A DNA stretch of 57,815 nucleotides from a virus (IMGVR_UViG_3300022602_002355:1-57815), one strand, 5' to 3'; positions 11,672-44,753 are shown, counted from the first letter of the stretch. Notes: generated by a model not told the origin, from the letters alone. A program made the numbers and translations.

Positions 11672-14329
11672 ATGAGCGCACCAATTTGGTATACACCTTC
11701 TGGGTTTTTAGGAACAGCTACAGAACGAACAGCACAATCAATTCCGATTGTAGTTCAAGACTTTGGCCAAGCTGTTAACTTTTCTGTTATATCAGGAAAT
11801 TTACCTTCTGGACTAGTGTTAGATAAAGCTACTACGTCAACTAATATAATAGTTCCTAATCCAGACACAGGTGCTCTTACGACTGTGTCAGGTACAGTTT
11901 GTTTTATTGTAGGTGACCCTACAAGTGTTCCTAGCGTAATTAATTCTAAATTTGTTATTAGAGCATCTAATTCAGATGGCATCGCAGACGCCACATTCAA
12001 CATAGATGTGTTAGGTGAAGTTGCACCTGAGTGGGTAACAGATGGCGGAATGTTACCGATAGGTACTACTGGAGAATTATTTACAGTTAATCAAGAGCAG
12101 GTAAATTATCAATTAGTAGCAGAAGCAAATGTTTTAGAAAAAGGCCAACAATTAATTTATTTTATTGCAGATGGCGATGGTCAATTACCTCCCGGATTAG
12201 TATTAAGTGAGTCTGGTATTATTTCAGGTGTTGTTACAGAAGATTTAACTATCCCAACTTCGTCTTATCTAGCAGGGTACGACACATCTTATTACGATGC
12301 ATATCCATATGATGTAGTGTCTAAAGTAGGTGACCTAAGTACTGCTCCTAAATTTTATACAAAGATCTATCAATTTTATGTAACAGCTAGCGATGGTTTT
12401 AATAGTTCTAGAAGATTGTTTTCTATTCAATTATTTGATTCTAACAGCCTACGTGCTGATACTTCATACATTTCTGCCGATTCGGGATTCTTTGCAAGCG
12501 ATGGTTACTTGTTTGCACCTAACTGGTTGAGTCCAGTTAACTTAGGAACTAGACGTGCTGGTAATTATCAAATAATTGAAATTGGGACCTATGATCCATT
12601 CCCAAGTACAGGTCCTGTAACATTTGATTGGACTAGTGTAAGCGTTAATCCACAGATACGAGGAGTTGCTAATGGTGCAATAGATCCTAATACAGGTAGA
12701 CAGACACAAAATTTAGTCGGTGCTAGTATATTGTATCTAGAGAACATTACTACATTACCTAGTACGGGTCAATATTTTAGATTAGATTCATATGTGGCGG
12801 GTGCAGATTCAACTGAATACGAAATTGTATCAGTAACTGATACTGGCAATGGTACATGCTATCTAACATTCCAATATAACCCTGTGTTGTCAAATGGTGT
12901 AGTTATATACTCAACTTCATTAAAAACAACAATTCCAGATCAAACTAATTTGTACTTTGGTTCATTATCTAAACATCCAGATGGATTTAGTTTAGATTCT
13001 GCATCAGGCGACCTATATGGTCAAATTCCATATCTACCATCCTATAGTCTAACATATCAGTTTACAGTTAGAATGACTAAAACTGATGCGGTAACAGGAA
13101 ACGTTGTTAAGAGTGATAGGGTATTCTTAATGACTCTTAAAGGTAATATTGATAGTACAATGCAATGGATTACCGGAGATAGTCCAGGTGCCCTAAAGCC
13201 AGGATACACAAGTGAACTGTATATTCAAGCAGAGCATACCAATGCCACCGATGTTGCTGTACAATATACACTAGTGGGCGGAGAACTTCCTACCGGTTTA
13301 GAACTAATGCGTGATGGTACCATTGTAGGTACTGTTCCATATAACGGATTAACCTATGTCGATTATACCAGTACAACTCCATTTACAATTGATGGTGGTG
13401 CAACAACTATCGATAGACATGCTAGTTTCACTGTTACAGCTAACGATGTATATAGACTAAGTTCATTAACAAAAACTTTTTATATAGATTTACAAGATCA
13501 AGATTTTGGTAATACACAATTTAGTAATATCTATGTAAGACCGTTCCTTGCTAAGTCTGTAAGACAATCGTACAGAGATTTTGTGTTAAGCAAAACAACA
13601 TTTGATCCTACCACTATATATCGTCCTAGTGATCCCAAGTTTGGTATACAAAATCAAATTGCAATGACAATTGAGTTTGGTATACAAAGATTACAACTTG
13701 CAGATTATGTAGCGTGTCTACAAGAATATTTTTATAATAAACGTTTCTATTTTGGCGATGTTAAATCTGTAATGGCACAAGATGAGAATGGTAAGAATGT
13801 ATATGAATTAGTCTATGTAGATATTATCGATTCTGCACAGAATTCAGCAGGCGCAAGTCCTAATGATGTTACTGTTTTAGTAAATCAACAATTACAAGAC
13901 GTATATGTTAACAGTTTAGATAACTGGCAAGGAAGATTAGAAGGTGTTACTATTAATGGCGATACTATTCTCACTGACGAATATCTAAGACCTAGATATA
14001 TGCGCACACTTCAAGCAAATGGCCAGCCATTAGGATTTATTAAGGCAGTGCCAATTTGTTATGTTAAACCTGGCTACGGTGCAAGTACCGTAGAGAAAAT
14101 AAACTTAACAGGTTTTGATTTTAAATTAATTGACTTTGAAGTTGATAGATTAATCATAGATCAAACCATAGATTATACCAGTGATAAATATCTCAAGTTC
14201 CCAGCTACTGGAGAAACTTTCATTCCAGACGGTACTCAACCACTGGATCCGTTGGCTGGTCCAGACGGTATTATATTGGAAGCAGAAGACGGAACCGATC
14301 TATTCACACAAGGCGATATAGTTAAATGA
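11672..14329 (+). CDS. Putative Ig-like repeat virion/baseplate protein
   Basis: Repeated GxLPxGLxL...GxIxG units ([22 protein letters not shown]). Confidence 0.7.
14184..14190 (+). promoter_or_regulatory. Late promoter embedded in a gene end
   Basis: ATAAATA within the DKY codons, about 135 nt before the collagen gene. Confidence 0.4.
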
Positions 14330-17300
14330 GTACAATTAGTAATCTACCGATAATTTCAACAATAACTAACACCGTTATCATTCCGGTAGTAGACACTTAT
14401 TCGCCAATTGAACAAACTAAACAGGCTACAGTAGGACAAATACAAGCATTTATTAGTAAGAGTATTTCACAAGGTGCAACAGGTTTGCAAGGAACAACAG
14501 GTGCCACAGGAGCAACAGGTGCAGGTGCTACTGGCGCTACTGGAGCAACAGGTGCTACAGGACCAAATGGTCCAATTGGTAGTACAGGTGCTACAGGACA
14601 AGGAGCAACAGGTGCTACAGGACCTACAAGTACAGTTCCTGGTCCAAGTGGTGCTACTGGTGCTACTGGAGAAGGCGCCACTGGTGCTACTGGTCTAAGA
14701 GGATTACAAGGTTATGTAGGAGCAACTGGTGTTCAGGGTGCTACTGGGGCAGGTGCTACAGGTGCTACAGGTATCGGTAGTACAGGTGCAACCGGTAGTC
14801 AAGGTGCTACAGGTCCAGCGGGTGCTACTGGTGCAGGTGCAACAGGCGCTACAGGTATTGGTAGCACAGGTGCTACTGGTGTACAAGGAAATGTTGGAGC
14901 CACAGGTGCAACCGGTGGTGTTGGTGCTACTGGAGTAGCAGGCCAAGGCGGCACTGGAGCAACAGGCGCTACAGGTGCAACAGGCCCACAAGGAAATGTA
15001 GGTCCTGTCGGAGCTACAGGTAGTACAGGTGCTACTGGTATACAAGGAACAACGGGTGCTACTGGTGTAGGATTTAAAATTAACGCATATGGCAATTATC
15101 CTAGTCCAGATGATAGAACACAATATAATAATTCAGGAACTGGGTTTGTATTTTTAGCAACCAATACAAACTTTTTATATATTTTACAATCAACTTCAAC
15201 ATGGGGACCTCCTGTGTTGTTTGGTGCAATTGGTAGTACAGGTGCCACTGGATATAACGGTGCTACAGGTGCAAGTGGTACAGGGTATCTATGGACAACA
15301 TACGATGCAGGTGGGGTAACACCATTTGACGGAGAAACTTCCACCCTTACTATTAACAATTACAATACATCTACGTTTGGTTATCAAACAGGTTCACGAG
15401 TACGTGCAAGTGTTCAAGCAGATTACACACAATGGTTTGAAGGACAGATTGATCTAGTAGATTACGTACACGGAATTATACAAGTACAAGTAGATAGAAT
15501 TGCAGGAGTTGCAAGTACAACAAGTTACAATTTATCAATTTCAGGAGAAATTGGTAGCACTGGATTTGAAGGTAATCAAGGAAGTACCGGAGCCACAGGT
15601 AGTGGTGCTACCGGAGCCACAGGGGCTACTGGCGCAACTGGTGCCACAGGACCATTAGGTCCAATCGGTGCTACAGGCGCATCAGGTGCTACAGGTAGTA
15701 TCGGTGCTACAGGTAGTACAGGTGCTACAGGACCACAAGGAGCGACAGGATTAGGAGCGACAGGTGCCACAGGTATGTTCGGTGCTACAGGTGCTACTGG
15801 TCAATATGGTAGTACAGGTGCTACCGGTCCATTAGGAGGAACAGGTGCTACCGGAGCTACTGGTGTACAAGGTGCTACCGGTTATCAAGGAAGTACGGGT
15901 GCGCAAGGAAGTACTGGCGCTACAGGAATCGGAGCAAGTGGTGCTACTGGAGCAACAGGAGCAACAGGAGTACAAGGTGCTACAGGACCTAATGGTGCTA
16001 CTGGTGCCACTGGCCAAGGTTTTCCTGGTGCTACAGGTGCCACTGGCGGTCCTGGTTCCACAGGTGCTACTGGGTTTGGTGCTACTGGTGCTACTGGTCT
16101 TAATGGACAGAACGGCGGACCTGGTGCTACTGGTGCTACTGGCTCGGGTGCTACTGGTGCTACTGGTGCAAGCGGATTTGCAGGAACTAGTGTTATAATT
16201 ATAGGCAGTGTTTCTACTAGTACTGATTTACCATATCCATATACAGGTGCTACTGGTAATTCTTATATTAACCAAGGCGATGGAAATCTTTACGAATGGT
16301 TAGGAACATGGACTAACGTAGGTACTATTGTTGGTGTAGGTGCTACAGGTGCTGTTGGACAAACAGGTGCTACTGGTTTAGGTACTACCGGCGCTACTGG
16401 TGCTTTTGGTTCTACTGGTGCTACTGGTCAGCAAGGTGCTACTGGAAATGCAGGGGATGTAGGAGCATCAGGCCCTACAGGTGCTACTGGTGCTACAGGT
16501 GTAGGTGCTACTGGCGCTTCTGGTTTACCTGGTGCTACAGGTAGTGGTGCTACTGGCGCTACAGGACCATACGGCGCTTCTGGCGCTACTGGGCCATTAG
16601 GTTCTACAGGTGCTACTGGATTAGGTGCTACAGGTGCCACTGGCCCGCAAGGTGCCACTGGACAAACTGGTCCATCAGTTATATCAACTACGGCAAATGC
16701 ATTATATGTATTTGATTTAAATTCTGGTTCGTATGTAGGCGGATCCGTTGGTAATAATGCATCTTCAATTGTTGCTAGAGATTCAACTGGTACTATTAAC
16801 GCTACTACAATTAATGCTACCACGGTTAATGCTACAACATATAACGGAACAGTAGGACAAGCAAATAATCTGTATGTAACCGACGGAGGTTATTATCAGG
16901 TCGGTGAAATCAGCGGACTTTACAATTCATTAATTAATCAATTTACCACAGGAACTATAGTTGCAAGAGACGGTAACGGAACGATCTACAGTAACGGAAT
17001 GGTTATTGCAGACGGGAATGATCTTATTTGGGTAACCGGTGGAGCATCTAATTACGAAACACTAGGTTCTAGTATTTCTGTAAATAGAATTCAAGCAAAT
17101 AGCGGTTTTGGAATGTCATTAGTCAGCGACGGTGGTGGTTTTAAATTATACACCGGCGGAGTTGAATCAGTGGTTATTAGTACCGGAACTGTAACTGCTA
17201 AAGTGTTTACTGCTAACATATTTGCTGGTACTGCTACCAGTGCTTATTATGCTGACTTGGCAGAAATTTATGCAACAGATCAAGTATATCCAGCAGGCAC

Positions 17301-17591
17301 AGTAGTTCGAGTAGGCGGAAGTGCCGAAGTTACTGCTATTACTACAAGCGAATGTTATGTACTAGGTGCAATTAGTACCAATCCTGCTTATCTAATGAAT
17401 AGAGATGCTCCAGGTCAACCTGTTGCACTAACTGGTCGAGTGCCTATGTTATTAGCAGGACCAGTTAAGAAAGGCGATCCAATTTGGCCATATGCAAATG
17501 GTGCTGGTTGGAATCAAGACAACGGTAAACAGCCATTTGCGTTTGCCCTAGAGGACGGTGGTCCTGGACTAGTGGAGTGTGTAATTAAATA

Positions 17592-17592
<1 letters not shown>
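14326..17592 (+). CDS. Collagen-like fibre protein with C-terminal ADLAE/GRVP domain
   Basis: Several long Gly-X-Y (mostly GAT) blocks separated by globular inserts; [12 protein letters not shown]-terminal domain. Confidence 0.85.
14473..16672 (+). repeat. Degenerate 9-nt coding repeats (GGTGCTACW, Gly-Ala-Thr)
   Basis: Dense imperfect tandem units inside the CDS, interrupted by non-repeat inserts. Confidence 0.85.
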
Positions 17593-19037
<1,445 letters not shown>

Positions 19038-23658: not shown

Positions 23659-24407
23659 TGTTTTTCTTTTTTAGAAAAAGCACAGTAGTTCTTGATTGTT
23701 TTACAGATAATAACTACCTGCATGATTTTTTGCCTATCGATTATGGACATAAGTTTTATCCCGATTGGTGGAAACAATTACCAAAAGATTTTGTCAGCAA
23801 AAAAAGTCCTACACAATTAAAACTCAACACGATGAAGTCGTGCAGGGGTTTGATTAGCTATTATCAAAATAGTGCTGTAATTCCTCTTTGGAGTGATTAC
23901 AATATTAAAATTGGTAGTTTAAAAACTCCCAAGGTTATGTTTGAATCTGCAAGTCAATACAAGGGAGTATTTCACGAGCCCGAGCAATGGGGCAATTATC
24001 TACCATCGACGAAATACGGGCACCTGAAACTTGATTGTCCCTGGTTCATTAGAGAAAAAGAAGGCATACAATTTTCGTTCTCTCAACCTTTCTATAACAA
24101 CCTAAACCCTACAGAATATTTGTTCTGTCCCGGTATCGTTGACTACAAATATCAAAATTCAGGAAATTTAAACATAATGTTCGATTTCCGAGATGACGAA
24201 CGAATCATAGAACTTAGAGCGGGCGAACCTGCGGCTATGATTATTCCGCTTACAGAGAGAACACTTAAAATTAAAACACATTTAGTTTCCCCACAGGAAC
24301 TTAATAATATGAATCCAAAGCCTATTACTTTTAATCATCATTATCAGTTTGTTAAAAAGGCAATGGATAAAAAAGAGGCTAAATGCCCATTCGGATTTGG
24401 AAAATGA
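23658..24407 (+). CDS. Hypothetical beta-rich protein
   Basis: 249-aa ORF with PDWWK, TMKSC, GEPAAMIIP motifs and a KCPF C-terminus. Confidence 0.7.
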   Translation: MFFFFRKSTVVLDCFTDNNYLHDFLPIDYGHKFYPDWWKQLPKDFVSKKSPTQLKLNTMKSCRGLISYYQNSAVIPLWSDYNIKIGSLKTPKVMFESASQYKGVFHEPEQWGNYLPSTKYGHLKLDCPWFIREKEGIQFSFSQPFYNNLNPTEYLFCPGIVDYKYQNSGNLNIMFDFRDDERIIELRAGEPAAMIIPLTERTLKIKTHLVSPQELNNMNPKPITFNHHYQFVKKAMDKKEAKCPFGFGK

Positions 24408-24877
24408 TATTCAATAAAATAAAACAATTAAAAGAAGATGGATTAAAAGTAGGAATAGTATTCAGTTCATTCGATCTGTTTCATGCAGGTCATGTTGCTA
24501 TGCTGGCAGAAGCAAAGAATCATTGTGATTACTTGATTGCCGCATTACAAACTGATCCTACTATTGACAGACCCGATACTAAAAATCCTCCGATTCAAAG
24601 CATTGTAGAAAGACAAATTCAAGTTAGTACAAATCGTAACGTAGATGAAGTTGTGGTTTATCAAACAGAAAAAGATCTAGAAGACTTATTGCTTATTCTT
24701 CCTGTCGATGTTAGAATATTAGGTGTAGAGTATAAAGACGTAGAATTTACAGGCAAACAAATTTGTCTAAATCGAGGAATTGAAATTGTCTACAATGGAC
24801 GAGATCATTCGTTTAGCAGTTCAAGTCTACGCAAGCGTGTAGCACAAGCTGAGAAAAGTAAAAATGCGAAATCTTAA
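24404..24877 (+). CDS. Cytidylyltransferase-family protein (TagD-like)
   Basis: FDLFHAGH HxGH motif, ER...VDEV, SSSSLR; ATGA-coupled start at 24404. Confidence 0.85.
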   Translation: MIFNKIKQLKEDGLKVGIVFSSFDLFHAGHVAMLAEAKNHCDYLIAALQTDPTIDRPDTKNPPIQSIVERQIQVSTNRNVDEVVVYQTEKDLEDLLLILPVDVRILGVEYKDVEFTGKQICLNRGIEIVYNGRDHSFSSSSLRKRVAQAEKSKNAKS

Positions 24878-32730: not shown

Positions 32731-33237
32731 ATGTTACAAATTGTAAAATTTCCAGACCCAATACTAAGAGAGCGGATGCCCGATTTTGATTTTGAGAATC
32801 CTATTATGGATCCAAAAGAACTCGAACGAGAAATGCTTGCGGCCATGTTTGCTAATAATGCAATCGGGCTTGCGGCTAATCAAGTAGGCATTCGTACACG
32901 AGTCTTTACCATAGGAGATAAAGAAAATTTCCTAATGGCTAAAGCATATTTTAATCCAAAGGTTATTGCAAATACCAGCGACATTAAAGACCTAGAAGAA
33001 GGTTGTCTAAGTTTCCCTGGTGTGTATGTTAATATCAAACGCCCTAGTGCAATTAAAGTAGAATATCAAAATGCAGACGGTGAAACCGAAACAGCAGAAT
33101 TCGAAGGTTATGACTGTAAGGTATTCTTACACGAATATGACCATTTGGAAGGCATTACATTCCAAGATAGAGTAAGTCCACTTAAATGGGCTATGGCAGT
33201 AAAGAAATCAAAACCAAATAAAAGGAAAGGCGTATAA
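32731..33237 (+). CDS. def: Peptide deformylase
   Basis: GLAANQVG, EGCLS, HEYDHLEG; TAAATA at 32720-32725. Confidence 0.93.
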   Translation: MLQIVKFPDPILRERMPDFDFENPIMDPKELEREMLAAMFANNAIGLAANQVGIRTRVFTIGDKENFLMAKAYFNPKVIANTSDIKDLEEGCLSFPGVYVNIKRPSAIKVEYQNADGETETAEFEGYDCKVFLHEYDHLEGITFQDRVSPLKWAMAVKKSKPNKRKGV

Positions 33238-35513
33238 TGTTAGAACCAAATAGCGATCTAGAAGGAATTTTTGAGCGAGCAGTAGCAATCGCGGCTAAAA
33301 ATCAACACGAGTATATTACTCTTGAACACTTCTTATATAGCATGGTTACAGATCAAAAATTTGGTCAGTTGCTTACAGACTTCGGAGCAGAAGTTGATGA
33401 TTTGAAAAAGAATCTTGAAAAATTTATCCATGATGATTTGAATGAAATTAAGTCTAATAAACCAGACGCTAAACCAAAGAAGACAAATACTGTAGAACGT
33501 ATGTTAAATCGTGCGTTTACACAGGTGTTATTCAACGGCCGTAATGTTATTGAACCAATTGATTGTTTTATCAGTTTATTTTCAGAGAAGAAAAGTTTTG
33601 CTAACTTTTTTATTCGAAAGGCTAAAATTGATAAAGATAAATTTATCGAATTTATCAACAACGAAGCTGATACACAAGAGGGTGAAGTTAAGGAAGTCAA
33701 CACCAAACAACTTGAACGTTTGATTGTACAGTATTGTCTTAATCTTACTGCAAAGGCAAAAGCAAAGCAAATCGATCCTGTTATCGGTCGAGAAAAAGAA
33801 ATCGAAGACATTACTCTTGTGCTAGCACGTAGACAAAAAGCCAATGTTATGTTAGTAGGTGATCCGGGCGTGGGTAAGACTGCTATTGCAGAAGGACTTG
33901 CACGTAGAATCATCGAAGGCAATGTTCCAAAGTTTATTAAAGACAGTACAGTTTATAGTCTAGACATTAGTGCTATGTTGGCTGGTAGTAAGTATCGCGG
34001 AGATTTTGAAGAGCGCCTAAAGTTAGTCATTACTGCATTAGAAAAGAAAAAGAATTGTATTCTGTTCATTGACGAAGCACACATGATGAGTGGTGCAGGT
34101 GCAGTAAGCGGTGGAAGCAATGATATGGCCAATATGTTAAAGCCAGCATTGGGCAAAGGCACTATTAAAGTTATTGCTTCAACTACATGGGAAGAATACC
34201 GTAAACACTTTGAAAAGGATCGTGCTTTAATGCGTCGATTCCAACGTGTTACCGTAGATGAGCCTAGCGAAGCAACTGCTATTAAAATTATTAAAGGTCT
34301 ACGTAAGTATTACGAAAAACATCACGGTGTTAAGATTACTAACCAAGCAGTTATTGATTCAGTTAAGTATTCTATCAAGTACATGTCTGATAAGAAATTA
34401 CCAGATAAGGCAATTGACTTAATCGATTGTGCATGTGCTCGCTTTAAAGTTCGTGACGAAGAGTCAGGTATTGTTGATCATGACGAAATTATGTTTGAAG
34501 TTGCTAAAGTAACAAACTTGCCACTAGAACAAATTTCTGCTAAAGAAAACAAGAACCTGAAAGACCTTGATAAGAATATGCGTAGCAAAGTCTATGGCCA
34601 AGAACAGGCTATCGATATTTTGTTAGATAAAATCTTTATTGCTCAAGCAGGACTTAAAGGACTTAATAAACCAGTTGGTAGTTTCTTGTTTACAGGACCC
34701 ACAGGTGTTGGAAAGACCGAAACTGCTAAAGTATTGGCAGGAGGCTTAGGTGTAGAATTAGTACGTTTTGATATGAGTGAATATCAAGAGAAACATTCTG
34801 TTGCTAAGTTTATCGGAGCTCCTCCGGGCTATGTCGGTTTTGAAGATAATGCCGGTATGCTTATCACTAAACTTCAAGAGCATCCAAACAGCGTTTTATT
34901 GTTTGACGAAATTGAAAAAGCTCATCCAGACGTTGCTAATGTATTGTTAGGATTGATGGACAATGGATTTGTTACAGGAAGTAATGGCAAAAAGGCCGAT
35001 GGTCGAAATGCAATCATTATCTTAACTTCTAATTTGGGCTCAGCAGACAACGAACGTAATGCAGTTGGATTCGGTGGACTAGAACGTGAAGACGAAACTG
35101 ATACAGCAATTAACGCATTCTTTAAACCCGAGTTCCGCAATCGTTTAGATGGTATTATTAAGTTTGGTAAACTTGATCACAGCACAATGGCTAAGATCGT
35201 TAAGAAATTCATCGACGAACTTAATGCGTTGTTGAAAGAAAAGAATGTACATGTTAAACTTGATGGCGATGCAGGTGAACTTTTGATTAAGAAAGGGTTC
35301 AATCGTAAGATGGGTGCAAGACCACTACAACGAACCATTGACGACATGATCAAGAAGCCGTTAAGTAAAGAAATCCTTTTTGGTAATTTAGTGAACGGTG
35401 GTATTGTAGAAGTTACTGCCGACGATGGTGAATTAAAACTAAAATTTATCGAAGTGCTACCGGTTGAAAAACCCAAAGTAGAAGAAGAAGATGTTAGTCA
35501 AGAAGACAACTAA
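33237..35513 (+). CDS. clpA: ClpA-like AAA+ unfoldase
   Basis: Clp N-domain, GDPGVGKT and GPTGVGKT, GAPPGYVG, VGF ClpP-docking loop, no ClpB middle domain. Confidence 0.92.
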   Translation: MLEPNSDLEGIFERAVAIAAKNQHEYITLEHFLYSMVTDQKFGQLLTDFGAEVDDLKKNLEKFIHDDLNEIKSNKPDAKPKKTNTVERMLNRAFTQVLFNGRNVIEPIDCFISLFSEKKSFANFFIRKAKIDKDKFIEFINNEADTQEGEVKEVNTKQLERLIVQYCLNLTAKAKAKQIDPVIGREKEIEDITLVLARRQKANVMLVGDPGVGKTAIAEGLARRIIEGNVPKFIKDSTVYSLDISAMLAGSKYRGDFEERLKLVITALEKKKNCILFIDEAHMMSGAGAVSGGSNDMANMLKPALGKGTIKVIASTTWEEYRKHFEKDRALMRRFQRVTVDEPSEATAIKIIKGLRKYYEKHHGVKITNQAVIDSVKYSIKYMSDKKLPDKAIDLIDCACARFKVRDEESGIVDHDEIMFEVAKVTNLPLEQISAKENKNLKDLDKNMRSKVYGQEQAIDILLDKIFIAQAGLKGLNKPVGSFLFTGPTGVGKTETAKVLAGGLGVELVRFDMSEYQEKHSVAKFIGAPPGYVGFEDNAGMLITKLQEHPNSVLLFDEIEKAHPDVANVLLGLMDNGFVTGSNGKKADGRNAIIILTSNLGSADNERNAVGFGGLEREDETDTAINAFFKPEFRNRLDGIIKFGKLDHSTMAKIVKKFIDELNALLKEKNVHVKLDGDAGELLIKKGFNRKMGARPLQRTIDDMIKKPLSKEILFGNLVNGGIVEVTADDGELKLKFIEVLPVEKPKVEEEDVSQEDN

Positions 35514-36626: not shown

Positions 36627-36639
36627 TAGTAAAATCCAA

Positions 36640-36646
36640 CTAAATA
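36640..36646 (+). promoter_or_regulatory. Late promoter heading the 36.7-43.6 kb cluster
   Basis: CTAAATA in the intergenic gap. Confidence 0.65.
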
Positions 36647-36709
36647 CTCTATTAATTGGGTGTTTAGCTGTATCATTGCGACATCTTAAAAAAGATCGGT
36701 GAAACTATT

Positions 36710-37060
36710 ATGCTATTAAATGAATTTTTCGGTAAGTCACAAACTCATGATGTAACTGACAAAAATAAGTTCAGAGAAGAACAAGTCATGGACGAAGTAT
36801 TTGAATATATCTTAAATCAAGATGATCTACATAAGAAGTTTTTCTTACCAACTGCAAACAAAGTTAAGAATACTAAAAAAGACGATCCTAAACTCTGGGA
36901 ACCATTAGTCAATCACGGTTGCATGAAGTTTTACAAAGAAAAAGAAATCATCGAAGATCCTAGAGATTTGTTTACTAAAAAAATGAGAGAGAAACTATGT
37001 CAGCGTTTTGCTAAACATTTTCACGATGACATACGTAAAGACGAATACAAATTAGGATAA
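36710..37060 (+). CDS. Hypothetical late protein (MLLNEFF N-terminus)
   Basis: Shares the N-terminal M-x-h-x-E-h motif with neighbours. Confidence 0.7.
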   Translation: MLLNEFFGKSQTHDVTDKNKFREEQVMDEVFEYILNQDDLHKKFFLPTANKVKNTKKDDPKLWEPLVNHGCMKFYKEKEIIEDPRDLFTKKMREKLCQRFAKHFHDDIRKDEYKLG

Positions 37061-37063
37061 TTC

Positions 37064-37942
37064 ATGGCAGGTAAAAGACTTTCATCTGCTGGTATCGATG
37101 TTGCCCGTGTAACCAAGGATGATTTCACTGCGGCTAAGGCTAAAATAGATCCACTATTAAAGAAAGCAGGTATTACAGCAGGATGGACTTCAGGTGGGGC
37201 AGGTAGTTTTGACCCAGAGCACCCATACCCTGGCACATTAAGAACAGACTCTGGGGATATCGACATTATGATCGATCCTCAAGAATTATTACATAAATTT
37301 CCAGCCGACATCGAAGCATGGAACGCATCATCAAAGAAGCCATTAGGTCCTAAAGCACTAGCAACAGCATTTGCTGATCCTGCTAAAAAAATTAAATTAC
37401 AAATGAGTGCTAGTAAAGCCGCGTTGGCAAACTATATGACTCAACACGGTATGCCAACTGATCCAGGAACACTTACCGTACAATATTCAGCTAACAATAA
37501 AAATTATTCAATCGACCTAATTGTTAGACCTCGAGATAGTTGGAATTTACACACGCACGATTTTAGTTTAGACCCTGGTATGCGTGGTGGCGATTTATGG
37601 AATGAAATTTATCCAGCACTGGCTAAAGTTAGTAGTCAAAAGAAATTCATTGATCCCAAAACAGGCGAAGAAAAAGGTAATATCCAATTTAGTCCAGACA
37701 AAGGATTAGTTGATAGAGAAACAGGACAAGTAGTTGCTAGTGGCGCTGAAAAAGATAAGATTGCTAAATTTTTAATTGGCCCAGAAGCGGGTGCTCGTGA
37801 CATATCCAGTCTAACCGGAATTAAAAATGCCTTGCGAAAATATCCAGATAAATGGAACGCAGTTAAACAATTTTTCCCAACACAAGAAAACATTCAATTT
37901 GGTTCAGGTGCGTGGATGCGTAAAATGATGGAGAGACTATAA
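37064..37942 (+). CDS. Pol-beta superfamily nucleotidyltransferase-like protein
   Basis: AGS...DSGDIDIMI plus third Asp in YSIDLIV. Confidence 0.65.
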   Translation: MAGKRLSSAGIDVARVTKDDFTAAKAKIDPLLKKAGITAGWTSGGAGSFDPEHPYPGTLRTDSGDIDIMIDPQELLHKFPADIEAWNASSKKPLGPKALATAFADPAKKIKLQMSASKAALANYMTQHGMPTDPGTLTVQYSANNKNYSIDLIVRPRDSWNLHTHDFSLDPGMRGGDLWNEIYPALAKVSSQKKFIDPKTGEEKGNIQFSPDKGLVDRETGQVVASGAEKDKIAKFLIGPEAGARDISSLTGIKNALRKYPDKWNAVKQFFPTQENIQFGSGAWMRKMMERL

Positions 37943-38961
37943 TGCGTATTATAGAAATTCTCAAAGAGGGCGGTTGGGATACTGCGGCTACACAAGGAAC
38001 AGTTATTACTCCTAGTGTTACCAAACAAGGATTAGCCGCTATGAATAAATTCTTAGAAGGCTTTAATCAATATCTAAAACAAAAAGGAATTGGTCCAGTT
38101 CGTGCAGGTACACCTACAGGAAGTAGTGCATATCACAATGTCGATCCAGAAACAGCAATCTACGGCGATATAGATTTACAAATTATTGTACCAGAGATTC
38201 CAGAGTTAGCAGGTAAGACACAATCACAGGTACAAACCTATTGGCACAAATTAGCAGGTGATTATGTCGCGGCACATCCTAATGTAGCACATGAAGAAAG
38301 TAAACCGGGTCATCCAGTATTACCAATCGGTAATAATCAATTTGTGCAAGTGGATATGATGATACACCCTGAACCATTGGCTAAATGGGGTGCGGCTCGT
38401 ACTATTCCAGAACGCGGAGTTAAAGGATTATTGCACGGGAACATGTTCTCTGTATTCGGTGAATTGTTAAACATGAGTATACAACACAGTGGTGTACAGT
38501 TTAAGGTTAGAGATAATGTAAGACAACCGTACACTACCACACGCAAAAACTATGAATTGAAAACTATTAGCACAAATCCGGAAACATTTGTCTATGATAC
38601 GTTTATGCACGAAGCACAATTATTGGGAATTAAACATCCAAAAATTGATCCGTTGTTAAAACAATTCCCTGGAAAGAACTTAGAAGATGTTAAAATATCT
38701 AATCTAGTTAATGCCGTTAAAGGATTTGCACGTAGTTGTGACATGAACAATATGTTTACACAAGGCGAATTATCTGGATTCATGTCAGGCGAAGATTTCT
38801 TAAAACAATTCTGGGAACGATATGAAGGTAAGGCATTAAAAGACATCGCTGGATCTAAGAGAGATAAGGCAATTGGTAACCCAGATGCAGAAGCTCGTGC
38901 CGAAGCAGATAAACAAAAAATATTAAGCGGATTAAAAATGGTTAAAGGACTGTTTCAATGA
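37942..38961 (+). CDS. Pol-beta superfamily nucleotidyltransferase-like protein
   Basis: PTGSS...YGDIDLQI plus VQVDMM. Confidence 0.7.
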   Translation: MRIIEILKEGGWDTAATQGTVITPSVTKQGLAAMNKFLEGFNQYLKQKGIGPVRAGTPTGSSAYHNVDPETAIYGDIDLQIIVPEIPELAGKTQSQVQTYWHKLAGDYVAAHPNVAHEESKPGHPVLPIGNNQFVQVDMMIHPEPLAKWGAARTIPERGVKGLLHGNMFSVFGELLNMSIQHSGVQFKVRDNVRQPYTTTRKNYELKTISTNPETFVYDTFMHEAQLLGIKHPKIDPLLKQFPGKNLEDVKISNLVNAVKGFARSCDMNNMFTQGELSGFMSGEDFLKQFWERYEGKALKDIAGSKRDKAIGNPDAEARAEADKQKILSGLKMVKGLFQ

Positions 38962-41759
38962 ACCTATTTGAAATCTTTAATAACCCTAGAAGAGTAATCA
39001 ACGAAGGTATAGATCACCCCGAGGACCTTATTATTCAACAAGGTGCGGCTGGTGCTGACCGTGTTATTGATGAGCTTTCAGGATTGAGCAAAGATTCAGG
39101 AACAGTTACTATCAAGTGGGATGGTTTCCCAGCAGTTGTATTTGGTCGTGATGCAAGTGGACAATTAGTGTTTGTTGATAAACACATGTTTGATAAAATT
39201 GCAAAAGGCAAGATGGAATTTACAACTATTCAAGATTATGATATTAGCCGTGAAGCAGATCGTGCAAGTCTTTGGCAAGCAGAAGAAACAATTCGTCCAG
39301 CATTAGATGCTATTGTACCGGCAGTAAAAGATCAATATTGGATGGGCGATTTAATGTGGACGGGTGTTCCAAAAACAGTCAACGGATATTATGATTTTAA
39401 ACCTAACACAGTAGAATATCGTATTCCTGTAGACAGCGAATTAGGTAATAAGATAGAAAACAGTGTAGGCGGAATTGCTGTACACACATTTATTCCCGGT
39501 CTTGGTCAAGGCGATGTACCATTAAAAGGACTTAAAGGATTAAAAGATAAAGCAGGCATTACTTTCTTAACAAGTGAGATGCATGAAAAGCCTAAAGTAA
39601 CTGTTGATCCTAAATTAGTAAACCATGCTAAAGCAGTCGTGAATCAATACAGAGGTGCTGTAGATAAATTCATGTCAGACCTAACTGCTATGAAAGGCAA
39701 GATGGTATTAACTGCCATGAGCCCATTCATTACTAGCATGTTAGAAGAAAATGATATTAGTAATGAAATTGTTCCTAGATTTTTAGAATTTTTAAAGAGC
39801 AGATTAAGCCCGGCCGCCGCACAGAAATTCTTAGGTGCAAATCAAGACGGCTGGTTGTTTCAAGCAGATGGCGGTGCTATGGGATTGCTAGGTGTGTGGA
39901 GCATGTGGGCCGCTGTGACAGATTTAAAAATTCATACAAAACAAATTATCGATAGTCAGCAACAGGGCAGTGAAGTTATTGCGTTGATTGACGGTCAAAC
40001 AAGTCACGAAGGTTATGTATTCGGATCAGGCAAGGACAAATTAAAATTAGTTGATAGACTAGGATTTAGTCGTGCTAACTTTGCTAAACATAAAGTACCA
40101 GATGAAGAAATCCAGGCTAAGAGTAAAACTCCATTAGCTGTATTTTGTTTCGGTCGTATGAATCCTCCTACACTAGGACATAAACTAGTAATGGAGAAAA
40201 CAGTACAGATGGGTGGCAAGAACGCATTTATTTTCTTAAGTAACAGCGAAGGTAAAGATGATCCTTTAGACCCAGCAACTAAGGCCGCTTTCATATCTCA
40301 AATGTATCCTAATTTTGCAGGACATATTGTAAAAGATTTCGTACAAGGTCCTATATATGCGGCTAACTGGTTATACGACAGAGGCTTTCGTAACATGGCG
40401 TTTGTTGCAGGAAGCGATAGATTAGGCAAGGAAAAAGGCAGTATTGAAAAACTATTAAATAGTTGGAACAGCGGTCCTGTGCGTACAACAGACAATTCTC
40501 GAGGTGAACAAGGTCGCGAACATGTTGTCATACAATTTGTCAGCAGTGGTCAGCGAGATCCAGATAGCGAAGGAATACAAGGGTACAGTGGAACTAAAGC
40601 AAGACAGGCCGCAGAAGCAGGCAATGAAGCACAGTTTCAACAATTTACAGGAGTCAAGTCAAATGTTGTTGTAGGTGGCAAAACTCTGTATCAAGCAACA
40701 AGAGAAGGTTTGGGGATTAAAGATCAACAACCTCCACAACCGACTCCGGGGAATAATATGAAATTAAACACATTTACTAATCAACATACAACTAATGAAG
40801 ATTTAGGCGCAGGTGGCGAACACACTGGTATGAGTCCTGTTAATGGAAATACGCAGAAATTAGATATGAGCGGGCATGGTAGAGGATGGAATTCTGCAAT
40901 GCAAAATCCAGAAGAATACGATACAGATGATCATCCAAATGAAAAATTTGCTCGTCTTAATAAACTTAAAGACAAGTTAAGTGGAATAAAATCAGAGCTA
41001 GCAAAACGTAAAGTTAAAGAAAGCATGGCAGGAGTTGGCATGGAACAACATGCTCGCGAAACTGGTCAACGCTGGAAGGGATATGCCGGTGGCGAAAGTT
41101 CCGGAATGGACGAAGCACAGTTTAATAGTAAACAAGAAGTCATTGATTATTTTGTTAAGAATGGTAAGAGTGCATCTGCAGGTGCTATGGCATGGGAACG
41201 AGGTTGGAGAGGACATACTCCTAAAAAGAAAAAAGAATTGCGTCCACCTGTAAGAAGCTATCATGATGATTTAGATGACAAGCGTTACAATGAAGCTATG
41301 TTACCAAAAAGCGATTTTGTAGGTTCCAAGAAAAATAAATTAGGGCCTGCTGGACAACTAAAAGGCAACATGAAACGCCCTGCACGTCAGGGTGACCTAG
41401 TAGGCGGCAGTGAAAGTATTGAAGAATTATCATTTATGGGCAGTCCTTGTACTAAGGATTGTAGCGGACATAAAGCAGGTTTTAATTGGGCGAAAAAGAA
41501 TAGCGGTAGATTAGCGGCTTCACCTAGTCAAAGTTTTAATAACGGTGCGGCTATTCAACAAGCACAAAAAACAAAAAAGAAAAGAGTTAGAACACCTGAT
41601 GTAGCAGAAGATCAACGCTTAGATAAAAGTTGCTGGAAAGGTTACCGAAAACAAGGTACTAAAATGAAGGGCGGCACTCGTGTAAACAACTGCGTCAAAG
41701 TAGGCGAAGCTTGGGAAAACGAAATTGCAAAAGCTATCAAATTATTAGAAAACAAGTGA
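38958..41759 (+). CDS. Ligase-fold nucleotidyltransferase plus HxGH-type transferase fusion with modular C-terminal tail
   Basis: KWDG (motif I), WMGDLM (III), HEGYVF (IV), KLKLVDR (V); then FGRMNPPTLGH, AGSDR, SGTKAR. Confidence 0.7.
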   Translation: MNLFEIFNNPRRVINEGIDHPEDLIIQQGAAGADRVIDELSGLSKDSGTVTIKWDGFPAVVFGRDASGQLVFVDKHMFDKIAKGKMEFTTIQDYDISREADRASLWQAEETIRPALDAIVPAVKDQYWMGDLMWTGVPKTVNGYYDFKPNTVEYRIPVDSELGNKIENSVGGIAVHTFIPGLGQGDVPLKGLKGLKDKAGITFLTSEMHEKPKVTVDPKLVNHAKAVVNQYRGAVDKFMSDLTAMKGKMVLTAMSPFITSMLEENDISNEIVPRFLEFLKSRLSPAAAQKFLGANQDGWLFQADGGAMGLLGVWSMWAAVTDLKIHTKQIIDSQQQGSEVIALIDGQTSHEGYVFGSGKDKLKLVDRLGFSRANFAKHKVPDEEIQAKSKTPLAVFCFGRMNPPTLGHKLVMEKTVQMGGKNAFIFLSNSEGKDDPLDPATKAAFISQMYPNFAGHIVKDFVQGPIYAANWLYDRGFRNMAFVAGSDRLGKEKGSIEKLLNSWNSGPVRTTDNSRGEQGREHVVIQFVSSGQRDPDSEGIQGYSGTKARQAAEAGNEAQFQQFTGVKSNVVVGGKTLYQATREGLGIKDQQPPQPTPGNNMKLNTFTNQHTTNEDLGAGGEHTGMSPVNGNTQKLDMSGHGRGWNSAMQNPEEYDTDDHPNEKFARLNKLKDKLSGIKSELAKRKVKESMAGVGMEQHARETGQRWKGYAGGESSGMDEAQFNSKQEVIDYFVKNGKSASAGAMAWERGWRGHTPKKKKELRPPVRSYHDDLDDKRYNEAMLPKSDFVGSKKNKLGPAGQLKGNMKRPARQGDLVGGSESIEELSFMGSPCTKDCSGHKAGFNWAKKNSGRLAASPSQSFNNGAAIQQAQKTKKKRVRTPDVAEDQRLDKSCWKGYRKQGTKMKGGTRVNNCVKVGEAWENEIAKAIKLLENK

Positions 41760-41980
41760 ACGATCTAGACGAAATAAAAATTCTTGCAGGTATTAGTAAT
41801 CGCCCTCGATTACGAGAATACAGCTCCCATCTAGAAGAAATAAATAAAGGTATAAACATATCTGTTACAGGCACTGAAAAGGGACGGTTGCAGAAAGAAC
41901 ACAATATTAAACCAGGAACTCCAGAATGGTTTAAATTGTGGTTTAGTTTACCGTATTTTACAGGCGAAAAACCAATATGA
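41756..41980 (+). CDS. Small late protein
   Basis: GTGA-coupled start; IKILAGI and IKPGTPEWF motifs. Confidence 0.6.
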   Translation: MNDLDEIKILAGISNRPRLREYSSHLEEINKGINISVTGTEKGRLQKEHNIKPGTPEWFKLWFSLPYFTGEKPI

Positions 41981-42357
41981 GAGCAAAAGAGTTTATTTTT
42001 AAAGAAGCAAAGGATTTTAAACCTAATGAGTTTAGACACGATGCTATGGCAGGATTACCTGGTGCTCATGCTTGGCCAGAATTAGATAACAGCTCTGGGT
42101 ATCTTGCATATCGTTTCGGAGTCGCACTTGCCGGACAGCCAGATCAAAAGATGGATGTAGTTGGACCAACTGGATTGAAGATGGTTACTATTGCGTACAC
42201 TCCTGCAGAACAAGCAATTTTAGATGCGGCCGCTGGATTAGTAGGAACACCTAAAGTACGATTAACACCAGATAGTAGTACAGAATTAGCAGACACAAAT
42301 AAACAAAGCCCTGTTGCCAATTGGAATAAACATGCTAACGGGAAAATGAAAAAATGA
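41977..42357 (+). CDS. Hypothetical late protein (MRAKEF)
   Basis: ATGA coupling; N-terminal motif shared with cluster. Confidence 0.7.
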   Translation: MRAKEFIFKEAKDFKPNEFRHDAMAGLPGAHAWPELDNSSGYLAYRFGVALAGQPDQKMDVVGPTGLKMVTIAYTPAEQAILDAAAGLVGTPKVRLTPDSSTELADTNKQSPVANWNKHANGKMKK

Positions 42358-42638
42358 AAATTGTAGAGTTGATCAATGAGAGTGATGACAATTGGGATGA
42401 GTTATCTCAAAAAGTATCAAAAAAATCAGCTGATCAAGCAATCAAACATCTTCAAAAGGATTTAAAAGATCCTATTGGATATGAAGCAGTGGACCATATG
42501 ATGACCAGTATAGCTAAAAAATACAATATGACTCCTCATAACCTACATTTATTATTTGTAGAAAAAGTTGGCACTACACCAGATGTTTGGATTAGAAAAA
42601 TCGGTCCAAGTTTAGACAAGTGGATTAACAAAAAATGA
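42354..42638 (+). CDS. Hypothetical late protein (MKIVELINE)
   Basis: ATGA coupling; N-terminal motif shared with cluster. Confidence 0.7.
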   Translation: MKIVELINESDDNWDELSQKVSKKSADQAIKHLQKDLKDPIGYEAVDHMMTSIAKKYNMTPHNLHLLFVEKVGTTPDVWIRKIGPSLDKWINKK

Positions 42639-42814
42639 AAATCAACGAATTATTAGAATCAGCTACCTCGGGTGGTACTAGTTCGGGCGCAATAGCATCT
42701 GTTGTAAATCCAGGCGGCAAAAAGAAAAGCGAAGTAGGTTCATTGTTCGGCGGAAGCTATGGTGAAACAATGAATAATAAACCTAAGAAAAAAACCAAAA
42801 TAGTTAAGAGATAA
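42635..42814 (+). CDS. Small late protein (59 aa, not in ORF track)
   Basis: MKINELLESATSGGTSSGAIA...KKKTKIVKR; ATGA coupling. Confidence 0.7.
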   Translation: MKINELLESATSGGTSSGAIASVVNPGGKKKSEVGSLFGGSYGETMNNKPKKKTKIVKR

Positions 42815-43933: not shown

Positions 43934-44226
43934 TGAACGATTTATTCTACGGTATTTTTTCTTGGATCAAAGATGATTTTAGAAGTCATCCTTTTCGTTT
44001 TTGTATCGAGCTTCTTGCTTGGGCTATTAGTATTGGCTGTAGTATCACAATGGCCCTTACAGTCCCTACACCACCTCTCATTGTTCTTTATCCTATTTGG
44101 ATCAGTGGTTGTGCTATGTACGCTTGGGCTAGTTACACTAGGAAATCATTTGGCATGTTGGCTAATTACATCCTGTTAGTATCGATCGATACAACTGGAT
44201 TGATTAGGATGTTAACGCATCTATGA
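43933..44226 (+). CDS. Small membrane protein
   Basis: Three hydrophobic segments. Confidence 0.7.
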   Translation: MNDLFYGIFSWIKDDFRSHPFRFCIELLAWAISIGCSITMALTVPTPPLIVLYPIWISGCAMYAWASYTRKSFGMLANYILLVSIDTTGLIRMLTHL

Positions 44227-44753
44227 TTAAAGTATTTGAGAATTGTATTCCTATTGAACTGCAAAATCGATATTTAGATTTTGCTAATAAGTTAGATTGG
44301 ATTTACAATAACTCAACTATATATAATCAAGAAGTCAAAGAATCTAGAATAACGGATGAGATTTATGATGTCGGACAATTATCTCGTCCGCTTTATCCTA
44401 AAGAATATCATTCATTTGACCCACTAATAAAATTGTTTGATCAACAGTATGTGTTAAGAATAAAATACAATTTATTGTGGCGTTGTGCAGATACATTAGG
44501 AAGATGGAATTCTCCACATAGGGATATGGAGGAGAACGAATATGTATCTGGAATATATTATGTAAAAGACAGTGATGGCGATACTGTTTTTTTTGGTGAT
44601 ACAATAACAAGAATTACACCCAAAAAAGGAACACTGGTAATTTTTCCTTCTAACTTGTTACACGCATCATCTAACCCACAAATCAGTCAAGAACGCATCG
44701 TGATTAATTTTGTAGCAAGACAGAAAGATATAAATATTAGTGCGAAAGGTTAA
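44223..44753 (+). CDS. 2OG-Fe(II) oxygenase
   Basis: PHRD, IYY..DSDGDT, IFPS..LHAS, RIVIN. Confidence 0.85.
   Translation: MIKVFENCIPIELQNRYLDFANKLDWIYNNSTIYNQEVKESRITDEIYDVGQLSRPLYPKEYHSFDPLIKLFDQQYVLRIKYNLLWRCADTLGRWNSPHRDMEENEYVSGIYYVKDSDGDTVFFGDTITRITPKKGTLVIFPSNLLHASSNPQISQERIVINFVARQKDINISAKG
44729..44736 (+). promoter_or_regulatory. T4-consensus late promoter upstream of the polymerase
   Basis: TATAAATA. Confidence 0.55.

Follow-up and report, generated by a model that had tools for sequence, protein, structure and literature searches.

Four consecutive genes on a 57.8-kb fragment of an uncultured virus (IMGVR_UViG_3300022602_002355:1-57815; the window hereafter, meaning this whole stretch of 57,815 nucleotides) may encode a late, head-packaged kit for the extension and sealing of polynucleotide ends, a reading to which we assign a probability of roughly 45%. 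These genes are g116 and three open reading frames (ORFs), of which ORF1 (NT1) and ORF2 (NT2) specify candidate nucleotidyltransferases of the DNA polymerase beta (Pol-beta) superfamily type. ORF3 is a fusion that joins DUF6267, a domain with the predicted fold of a ligase-like covalent nucleotidyltransferase, to a HIGH-family domain resembling cytidylyltransferases, NMNAT and PPAT, and to a C-terminal part. The encoded domains neighbor each other, or are fused to each other, across hundreds of uncultured phages, and form a widespread, uncharacterized module. The Pol-beta-type and ligase-like proteins are its tightest couple, and the simplest activity that they might share would be the extension or filling of 3' ends, followed by their sealing.

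Gene Organization and Linkage of the Domains

The four genes are read from the + strand, as are essentially all genes of the window. The unit begins with g116 (36710-37060; 116 amino acids, aa), for which there is no family match, and continues with ORF1 (37064-37942; 292 aa), ORF2 (37942-38961; 339 aa) and ORF3 (38958-41759; 933 aa). The spacing is +3 nucleotides (nt) between g116 and ORF1, -1 nt between ORF1 and ORF2, and -4 nt between ORF2 and ORF3, and homologs of g116 are found at the same place in relatives. Within ORF3, a leader (residues 1-16; 38958-39005) is followed by DUF6267 (residues 17-379; 39006-40094), the HIGH-family domain (residues ~388-589; 40119-40724) and the C-terminal part (residues ~620-933; 40815-41759). 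A preliminary description of this region, made from the DNA sequence, had recognized tightly coupled genes and had named their active-site motifs; the ORFs indeed overlap or abut each other, and the motifs are both present and conserved.

Our synteny analysis relied on the 80 best of 203 viral loci encoding a relative of ORF2. In 62 of the 69 loci that extend at least 1100 nt beyond ORF2, DUF6267 is found within 3 kb, and in 44 within 150 nt. When both flanks are available (n = 42), NT1 is present in 40 loci, DUF6267 in 39, and the HIGH domain in 12. The order of the genes varies: many close relatives possess ORF2-ORF1-ORF3, the window ORF1-ORF2-ORF3. The domains co-occur in related phages, a check that the preliminary description had itself proposed.

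Fusions tell the same story. Among the long NT1 representatives, 27 of 46 carry DUF6267 in the same polypeptide and three carry CTP_transf_like. Searches of 388 stored proteins with hidden Markov models (HMMs) revealed the architectures NT1-LIG (26 proteins; LIG, the ligase-like domain), LIG-NT1 (5), NT2-NT1 (4) and NT1-LIG-HIGH (2), along with single cases of NT1-NT2, LIG-NT2-NT1, NT1-LIG-LIG, NT1-NT1-LIG and HIGH-NT2; 36 of the stored proteins join NT1 to DUF6267. Further fusion partners are GNAT, NT5C, ART-PolyVal, Tad3, amidoligase, GGACT, a kinase family, and Glyco_hydro_19 together with LysM, the latter as wall hydrolases fused to ORF2 homologs. Those parts of the fusion proteins that were left unexplained were scanned against PHROGs and Pfam, for the most part without a match. 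Synteny and the many fusions thus lend support to the functional linkage of all four domains that had been suspected from the window.

The DUF6267 Domain of ORF3

Residues 17-379 of ORF3 match Pfam family DUF6267 (PF19782) with an E-value of 1e-37 and 130.8 bits against a cut-off of 27, and the match covers model positions 3-376 of 376. In an alignment of 33 sequences (25-68% identity), H20-P21-E22, K53, D55, G130-D131-L132, F147, V152, Y154, H176 and E351-G352 are invariant, and G56, K363, L364 and R367 are conserved in at least 90%. Motif I of the covalent nucleotidyltransferases is found as IKWDG, with K53 as the candidate adenylylated lysine. By order and spacing, we take G130-D131-L132, F147/V152/Y154, E351-G352 and K363-L364..R367 to represent the ligase motifs III, IIIa, IV and V, for which they are candidates in this succession. 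The catalytic-type residues K53, D55 and D131, whose retention in homologs had been named as a test of the original proposal, are kept in all 33 sequences.

An AlphaFold (AF2) model of DUF6267 (mean pLDDT 86.5, pTM 0.81; residues 1-15 disordered with pLDDT <50) predicts the fold of an adenylyltransferase domain. The structural neighbors of this model are polynucleotide ligases, among which RNA ligases lead by less than 2 Z units. Foldseek searches of the PDB with the model gave no row at E <= 0.001, and their best weak rows are RNA, tRNA and DNA ligases. In BFVD, 20 significant rows were obtained, all of them viral and either unnamed, uncharacterized or cytidyltransferase-like in name (one carries an NrdB label). 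We take these to be members of the DUF6267 family itself, and they include the 591-aa fusion protein of S-PM2; among the weaker rows, viral RNA ligases predominate, interspersed with entries that are unnamed or unrelated. Solved structures, searched by sequence and by profile, offered nothing usable for ORF3, DUF6267 or the HIGH domain. Model, fold search and conserved motif columns collectively support the covalent ligase or capping fold that had been proposed for the N-terminal part of ORF3, and they point to DUF6267 as a novel branch within the superfamily of ATP-dependent RNA/DNA ligases.

DUF6267 does not appear to be the ligase with which these phages replicate their DNA. Besides DUF6267, a canonical ATP-dependent DNA ligase (PF01068) is found in two related records, G001 (354 kb, complete) and G004 (L087:1189-2502 (-), L088:1204-2511 (-)), so that DUF6267 cannot simply be their replicative ligase, and a role as the only or replicative ligase of the phage is thereby ruled out for this clade. 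The model for NAD-dependent ligases found no relevant match in the five related records.

ORF1 and ORF2 as Distantly Related Pol-beta-Type Candidates

A large protein collection contains 105 relatives of ORF1 and 635 of ORF2, all unnamed, and those listed are without a Pfam domain save for a few fused forms. ORF1 possesses the motifs GGAGS (G44, A46, G47) and GDID (G64, D65, D67), followed by D151; all six named glycine, alanine and aspartate residues of the two motifs are invariant in 28 homologs, and D151 is nearly so. In ORF2, G60, S61, G75, D76, D78 and D138 are among the invariant residues of 29 homologs. The motifs of the two adjacent Pol-beta-type proteins, described at the outset as GS, GDID and a third Asp, are therefore firmly conserved on both sides. 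When the ORF1 family is represented by 54 short proteins (18-41% identical to ORF1), its sole invariant columns are G44, D65, D67 and D151, a pattern that, as far as primary structure can tell, is exactly the Pol-beta superfamily signature G[S]...DxD...D. The wider pattern hG[GS]...[DE]-h-[DE]-h is present in ORF1 as G47-S48...D65-I-D67 and in ORF2 as G60-S61...D76-I-D78, and the third carboxylate is represented by D151 of ORF1, which hhalign aligns with D138 of ORF2; its strand placement is presumptive.

ORF1 and ORF2 are distant paralogs: an alignment with the broad, 54-member profile brings their three motifs into register (hhalign probability 95.5%, E 1.6e-8, 193 columns), and a local HMM search agrees (E 2.9e-6). 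With shallow alignments, hhalign detected no homology between them (2% probability). Since the two are paralogous, the initial count of four active sites from three folds stands with regard to the folds, but the four sites are not four independent inventions. The ORF1 family extends well beyond the close relatives of the window: a 255-aa protein whose gene immediately precedes ORF2 in less closely related phages is homologous to ORF1 over its full length (hhalign 99.8%, E 3.9e-30), and the merged family profile finds 453 representative clusters at E <= 0.001.

The three Pfam families that recur most often as weak, sub-threshold matches among the 54 relatives are DNA_pol_B_palm (4), AbiEii (3) and MTPAP-like (3), all of them Pol-beta families; the best of the Pol X palm matches, seen in 4 of the 54, has an E-value of 0.016. 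A language-model atlas locates ORF1 and ORF2 close to a viral cluster, 33% of whose members carry PF01909. Sequence and profile searches against solved structures yielded nothing usable for either protein. Some relatives of ORF2 or ORF1 (L004:6671-8005, L029:6650-7999, P0217, P0219, P0239) possess an added domain resembling GNAT acetyltransferases, whose Pfam match exceeds the threshold in P0239 but is weak in the ORF2 forms.

The HIGH-Family Domain and the C-Terminal Part of ORF3

Two PHROG families named 'cytidyltransferase' match ORF3, at residues 349-617 (1.3e-34) and 388-589 (3.3e-17). In 10 close homologs, the HIGH domain keeps the motif FCFGRMNPPT(L/M)GH without exception, and the conservation of S164-G165-T-K167-A168-R169 (SGTKAR) is complete or reaches at least 90%; we equate the latter with the ISxTxxR-type motif of HIGH-family nucleotidyltransferases. 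The cytidylyltransferase gp154 of phage S-CREM2, with the motif FGRYNPPHKGH, is 31% identical to the domain over 129 aa (E 3e-13). The assignment to the HxGH class made in the preliminary description is thus upheld by both PHROG families, both motifs and this homolog, except that the motif itself reads T-x-G-H in ORF3 (GRMNPPTLGH). TIGR00125 scored 14.8-16.4 on the domain against a cut-off of 27.7. The threshold of PF01467 (CTP_transf_like) is passed by five fused relatives (P0387, P0388, P0261, P0328, P0337).

The basic C-terminal part of ORF3 has a CWKGY...NNC motif at residue 892 and ends in LLE-NK. In four of the five relative loci that carry this motif (L006, L066, L068, L075), it resides in a gene of its own immediately downstream of a shorter homolog of ORF3; in the fifth, L072, the genes are arranged differently. 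Because the motif-bearing part is a separate downstream gene in relatives, ORF3 of the window is a three-part fusion. The separate genes start with the strict leader discussed below in L006 and with the near-variant MKI[KT]QLL in the other three. The string NNMKLNTF inside ORF3 may be a relic of the start of the C-terminal gene.

The N-Terminal Leader and the Promoter-Like Motif

Several otherwise unrelated proteins of this region begin with a leader of the general form M-[KR]-[ILA]-x-E-h-h(-x-E). In its strict form, M-x-x-x-E-[FIL]-[FIL], it is present in 6 of the 67 ORFs of the window, all within 36710-42814: g116 (MLLNEFF), ORF2 (MRIIEILKE), ORF3 (MNLFEIFNNPRRVINE), and three small + strand genes without family match that lie downstream at 41977-42814, namely g126 (MRAKEFI), g94 (MKIVELI) and g59 (MKINELL). 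The leader reported earlier for two of the three main ORFs is thereby borne out for ORF2 and ORF3. Across the 80 related loci, it was found on 215 of 961 ORFs, invariably on the strand of ORF2, and 118 of these have Glu at position 9 as well. Its basic residue 2 is encoded by AAA, AGA, CGT, AAG or CGA, and since these codons vary, it is the peptide and not the DNA that is conserved.

A second regularity is the tripeptide [IL]xE, which ends at residue 5 in ORF2 (IIE-5), ORF3 (LFE-5), g116, g94 and g59, and a second time, at residue 8, 9 or 16, in four of these (LKE-9 in ORF2, INE-16 in ORF3); g126 reads AKE-5, and the pattern is present neither there nor in ORF1. We liken the leader to the leader sequence of phage T4 itself. 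Internal head proteins of T4 enter the prohead core by means of a capsid targeting sequence, and the protease gp21 then cuts their N-terminal propeptides (PMC5694885; PMC3012670); in T4 Alt, the cleavage sites are ITE-6 and LTE-619 (PMC5694885). Proteins of the gp21 family (Peptidase_S77) are encoded by two close relatives of the window with the same gene neighborhood (G002, 7e-27; G003, 1.5e-27), and no such match was found in the related records G001 (100% complete), G004 and G005. Moreover, the S-CREM2 cytidylyltransferase (gp154/ORF154) is listed with 3 peptides and 11.2% coverage in purified virions, and such enzymes are described as frequently met with in proteomes of cyanophage virions (PMC10665884). 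Its gene product starts with MKNFSSFLTE, and TATAAATA is located ~20 nt upstream. Judged from these features, packaging of ORF2- and ORF3-type proteins in the virion head is plausible, and g126, g94 and g59 probably belong to the same class of cargo.

Runs of mutually unrelated neighbors that start with M-[KR]-[IAL]-x-[ED]-h-h were observed in loci L002-L081 as well as at 36710-42814 of the window. At L044:6132-12977, seven consecutive genes begin with MRAxEF or MRAxQF, and among their products are a protein with a GP88 domain, a chitinase-like one and one with weak likeness to RNase E/G. An entire class of cargo may be marked by the leader.

A promoter-like motif, AACTAAATACTCT (36637-36649, + strand), lies 61-73 nt before g116. 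Its TAAATA core, at 36641, is 69 nt from the start of g116 (36710) in an intergenic region of 83 nt. The preliminary description had placed the genes behind a TAAATA promoter; as the motif precedes g116, the unit starts one gene earlier than was first assumed. On the + strand of the window, TAAATA is under-represented, with 24 occurrences where base composition would predict 56. Of the 24, eight are intergenic, and intergenic DNA makes up 3735 of the 57815 bases (6.5%); the sequence is found just before genes at 2056, 20605, 26882, 29644, 36187, 36641, 41841, 44731 and 47510. In addition, an 11-base sequence, AACTAAATACT, is common to the regions upstream of g116 and of a giant fiber-like gene at 2106. 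On account of this concentration before genes and of the sequence shared by g116 and the fiber-like gene, late transcription of the unit is a reasonable reading of the motif pattern. The exact T4 late promoter TATAAATA was considered and rejected as the promoter of the window, where it occurs once against 7.5 times expected, and the phage may use a shorter late-promoter core. Between 35400 and 44300, neither sigma-70-like sites (18 versus 27.7 in shuffles) nor terminator-like sites (4 versus 5.7) are enriched.

A Model for Extension and Sealing, and Its Alternatives

The data lend themselves to the following model. Transcription from the TAAATA-type promoter would occur late in infection, and the leader-bearing proteins would enter the prohead core, where a protease of the T4 gp21 type would cut the peptide after Glu, in analogy to the T4 internal proteins and Alt. 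The mature enzymes would be ejected along with the DNA. In the newly infected cell, NT1 and NT2 could then extend or fill 3' ends, and DUF6267 could seal breaks with 5'-phosphate and 3'-OH ends via a lysyl(K53)-AMP intermediate, so that breaks in the incoming genome or in RNA would be mended ahead of any phage gene expression. The HIGH-family domain might supply or regenerate an adenylylated cofactor such as NAD+. A more far-reaching version of this model, which we consider rather doubtful, sees in DUF6267 a new and abundant family of polynucleotide ligases that, in conjunction with two mini Pol-beta-type polymerases or tailing enzymes and an adenylyltransferase, forms a head-loaded repair kit of aquatic T4-like and giant phages. 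It would be loaded through a T4-style targeting peptide and injected with the genome, and would fill and seal incoming DNA damaged by sunlight or nucleases, or RNAs cut by defense systems. The interpretation offered in the preliminary description, that of an injected nucleotide-transfer toolkit, is partly supported: the ligase fold, the HIGH class and the linkage speak for it, and membership in the Pol-beta superfamily does so by sequence only. The uses that it named, such as repair after anticodon nucleases, NAD restoration and AMPylation, are hypothetical.

Several observations weigh against the extend-and-seal proposal. No curated family model of Pfam, NCBIfam or PHROGs exceeds its threshold on ORF1 or ORF2, and the Pol X models for palm (PF14792) and thumb (PF14791) find no match at the NT1 and NT2 genes of five related phage records, even at E <= 10; what places the two proteins in the Pol-beta superfamily is the invariant signature, the recurrent weak Pfam matches and the language-model neighbors. 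Similarly, CTP_transf_like (PF01467) scores 15-17.4 bits on ORF3, under its cut-off of 21, and the HIGH domain owes its assignment to motifs, PHROG families and the S-CREM2 homolog. DUF6267 and the canonical DNA ligase of the relatives are aligned by hhalign with a probability of 0.2%. The block contains no end-healing kinase or phosphatase, and the partners ART-PolyVal, Tad3, GNAT, amidoligase and the kinase family fit a general effector role as well as they fit repair. With regard to packaging, the window is a fragment of an estimated 16% completeness without head genes, and its ORF1 is without the leader that many ORF1 homologs possess. DUF6267 of P-SSM4 and S-PM2 also lacks the leader and is encoded in the replication region, so that packaging is not universal for the family. 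Finally, the authors of the virion proteome caution that abundant non-structural proteins may co-purify (PMC10665884). It is because the block lacks an end-healing enzyme, and because the fusion partners would suit a broader role as injected effectors, that we hold the proposal at the probability stated above and retain three alternatives.

The missing leaders and the possible co-purification equally favor the first alternative, in which the domains are as described but act as ordinary, unpackaged intracellular enzymes of the replication or repair period, with a leader that would serve translation initiation, folding or turnover, or would be a relic of duplication and shuffling. The DUF6267 and cytidylyltransferase genes of P-SSM4 and S-PM2 follow gp43, uvsX, gp41 and mazG, and the leader is found on 22% of the ORFs of the related loci, a large share for capsid cargo. 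Nevertheless, we consider this alternative unlikely: the leader is kept as a peptide across unrelated proteins, matches the sites cut by T4 gp21, and is disordered and located outside the folded domain in the ORF3 model, while close relatives encode a gp21-type protease, and delivery is suggested by fusion to wall hydrolases and to domains of polyvalent proteins.

The second alternative, to which we likewise give little credence, is a nucleotide counter-defense kit directed at NAD-depleting or cyclic-nucleotide defenses (Thoeris, CBASS). The HIGH domain would rebuild NAD+ in the manner of NMNAT, NT1 and NT2 would make, cap or destroy signaling nucleotides, and DUF6267 would adenylylate a small molecule or a protein. 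A cyanophage homolog is indeed called an NMNAT homolog in print (PMC10665884), the Pol-beta superfamily includes cGAS-like and RelA-like enzymes (PMC5512222), and NT1 is fused to Tad3, an inhibitor of Thoeris, as well as to NT5C nucleotidases and ART-PolyVal. The fusions that touch on nucleotide metabolism are nonetheless rare (three with NT5C and one with Tad3) when set against those with DUF6267, the structural neighbors of which are polynucleotide ligases and which keeps all candidate ligase motif columns. The NMNAT equivalog model reaches an E-value of no better than 0.24, and PADLOC found no match among the five proteins submitted to it.

It is quite improbable, lastly, that NT1 and NT2 act at takeover on host proteins, as AMPylators or similar protein nucleotidyltransferases, with the ligase-like and HIGH domains as unrelated co-traveling cargo in polyvalent-type proteins; the protein-modifying domains known for injected polyvalent proteins do include Pol-beta nucleotidyltransferases (PMC5512222), and the partners GNAT, ART-PolyVal and a T7 gp0.7-like kinase family would suit such a role, but the polyvalent Pol-beta clade described there is a minimal firmicute form linked to ArdC, not this family, and the very tight and specific coupling of NT1 to DUF6267 argues for a common substrate.

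Genomic Neighborhood and Habitat

The four-gene block is embedded among genes for giant tail-fiber-like proteins, a T4-type DNA polymerase, a clamp loader, a ClpA-like ATPase, a peptide deformylase and an endolysin. A 2968-aa protein encoded at 2106-11012 matches tail-fiber families, and two proteins encoded at 14326-19037 (1088 and 481 aa) match collagen-like fiber families; the G+C content is 0.43-0.46 over 14-20 kb and ~0.38 elsewhere in the window. At 32731-35513, the gene for the deformylase (168 aa) is directly followed by that for the ClpA/ClpB-like ATPase, which has two AAA+ domains (758 aa; phrog_4871, 1.5e-247), and close relatives keep this gene pair upstream of the module. Apart from ORF3, the window has another HIGH-family protein, of 164 aa, which is encoded at 24383-24877 and matches phrog_7878, 'heptose 1-phosphate adenyltransferase' (3.8e-28). 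Downstream of the module, a 176-aa protein (44223-44753) matches both the PHROG 'DNA endonuclease V' (2.8e-27) and families of 2OG-Fe(II) oxygenases (3.4e-12); the former name seems doubtful, an AlkB-like oxygenase being as likely.

In four lake-water metatranscriptome libraries, contigs identical to the window fill 28, 22, 17 and 18 of 30 bins between 35000 and 44500. Given these identical short contigs, this giant phage is probably a freshwater phage. The contigs attest to presence in RNA libraries only, are too weak to serve as evidence of transcription, its strand or its timing, and give no meaning to uncovered bins.

Significance and Comparison With Known Systems

The superfamily of each fold, capsid targeting, and viral repair by a polymerase and a ligase are already known; new is the combination of the DUF6267 ligase-like family with two unrecognized Pol-beta paralogs and the leader. 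Our full-text literature search found no paper that names DUF6267, and nothing that joins 'cytitidyltransferase' with 'cyanophage'. The module is common yet unstudied. If it is head cargo, the range of enzymes that phages inject would widen to polymerase-type and ligase-type activities, and the fusion of polymerase and ligase that a giant algal virus has for repair would find its counterpart in bacterial viruses. Should DUF6267 seal nucleic acid, it would represent a new ligase family of possible practical use. The leader provides a simple sequence rule by which capsid cargo might be predicted in uncultured T4-related phages.

The closest cultured counterpart is found in T4-like cyanophages, in which DUF6267 and a transferase form an old, unstudied gene pair. 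At the DNA level, megablast found no match to the region in cultured phages. The pair itself is present in 477 cultured phage records, mostly of T4-like cyanophages, as a 'hypothetical protein' and a 'cytidyltransferase' (T4-GC 71, T4-GC 190), and DUF6267 alone is present in 274, mostly of marine cyanophages; 38 of the 40 DUF6267 matches listed are labeled 'hypothetical protein', and the others 'gp183' (Syn9) or NrdB. Carriers of the pair in culture include S-PM2, Syn9, Pelagibacter phage HTVC008M and Methylophilales phage Melnitz. The cyanophage proteins, fused in S-PM2 as S-PM2d138, are homologous to residues 1-613 of ORF3 (25-33% identity), and the two domains are adjacent or fused in the same order as in the window. 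The statement in the preliminary description that no characterized system has this composition is hence right as to characterization; DUF6267 and the cytidylyltransferase are, however, a long-annotated pair. What sets the window apart is the third, C-terminal part of its fusion, the leader, which is missing from the cyanophage DUF6267 proteins examined, and the two Pol-beta paralogs: ORF1, ORF2 and the 255-aa NT1 form have no tblastn match in 50,697 records of cultured phages.

Among characterized enzymes, DUF6267 resembles the ATP-dependent RNA ligases NgrRnl (Naegleria, Rnl5), T4 Rnl2, T4 Rnl1 and the ligase domain of fungal Trl1 in its KxDG lysine and, as we assume from order and spacing, in motifs III, IIIa, IV and V. 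It differs from solved ligases in being without detectable sequence or profile similarity to them, and from the RNA ligases in an insert of ~140 mostly helical residues (~residues 205-335, helices 218-334) and in the invariant HPED motif before motif I.

Polymerase-ligase pairs have precedents among large DNA viruses. African swine fever virus packages a Pol X and a ligase, a viral repair pair to which the proposed kit may be compared. In Phaeocystis globosa virus (PgV), a PolX-ligase fusion carries out gap filling and sealing in vitro (PMC5537341). As is proposed for the window and its relatives, a small Pol-beta-type enzyme is joined there to a strand-sealing enzyme, be it in one polypeptide or one operon. 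The PgV ligase domain is, in contrast, of the NAD-dependent type, whereas DUF6267 resembles ATP-dependent RNA ligases. In comparison with viral Pol X, ORF1 and ORF2 are placed by the Pol-beta signature, their palm and thumb matches being weak or none, and no AP endonuclease or lyase was identified in our analysis.

With regard to delivery, the T4 proteins IPI-III and Alt provide the nearest model, as they too are unrelated proteins that share a short N-terminal peptide ending in (I/L)-x-Glu; in both cases, a number of such genes are neighbors, and a gp21-family protease is encoded in close relatives of the window. The cargo differs: in place of small basic proteins or an ADP-ribosyltransferase, the phage of the window would package multi-domain nucleotidyltransferases. 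A further likeness is to the polyvalent proteins, which unite numerous dissimilar enzymatic domains in a single polypeptide and for which injection together with the DNA has been predicted (Iyer et al., 2017; PMC5512222). The accessible text of that study describes neither DUF6267 nor the present Pol-beta clade, and the word 'cyanophage' is absent from it. In the manner of polyvalent proteins, relatives of ORF1 and ORF2 occur in chains of 600-1650 aa with ART-PolyVal, GNAT, wall-hydrolase and other domains; in the window, by contrast, the domains are mostly encoded by separate, coupled genes.

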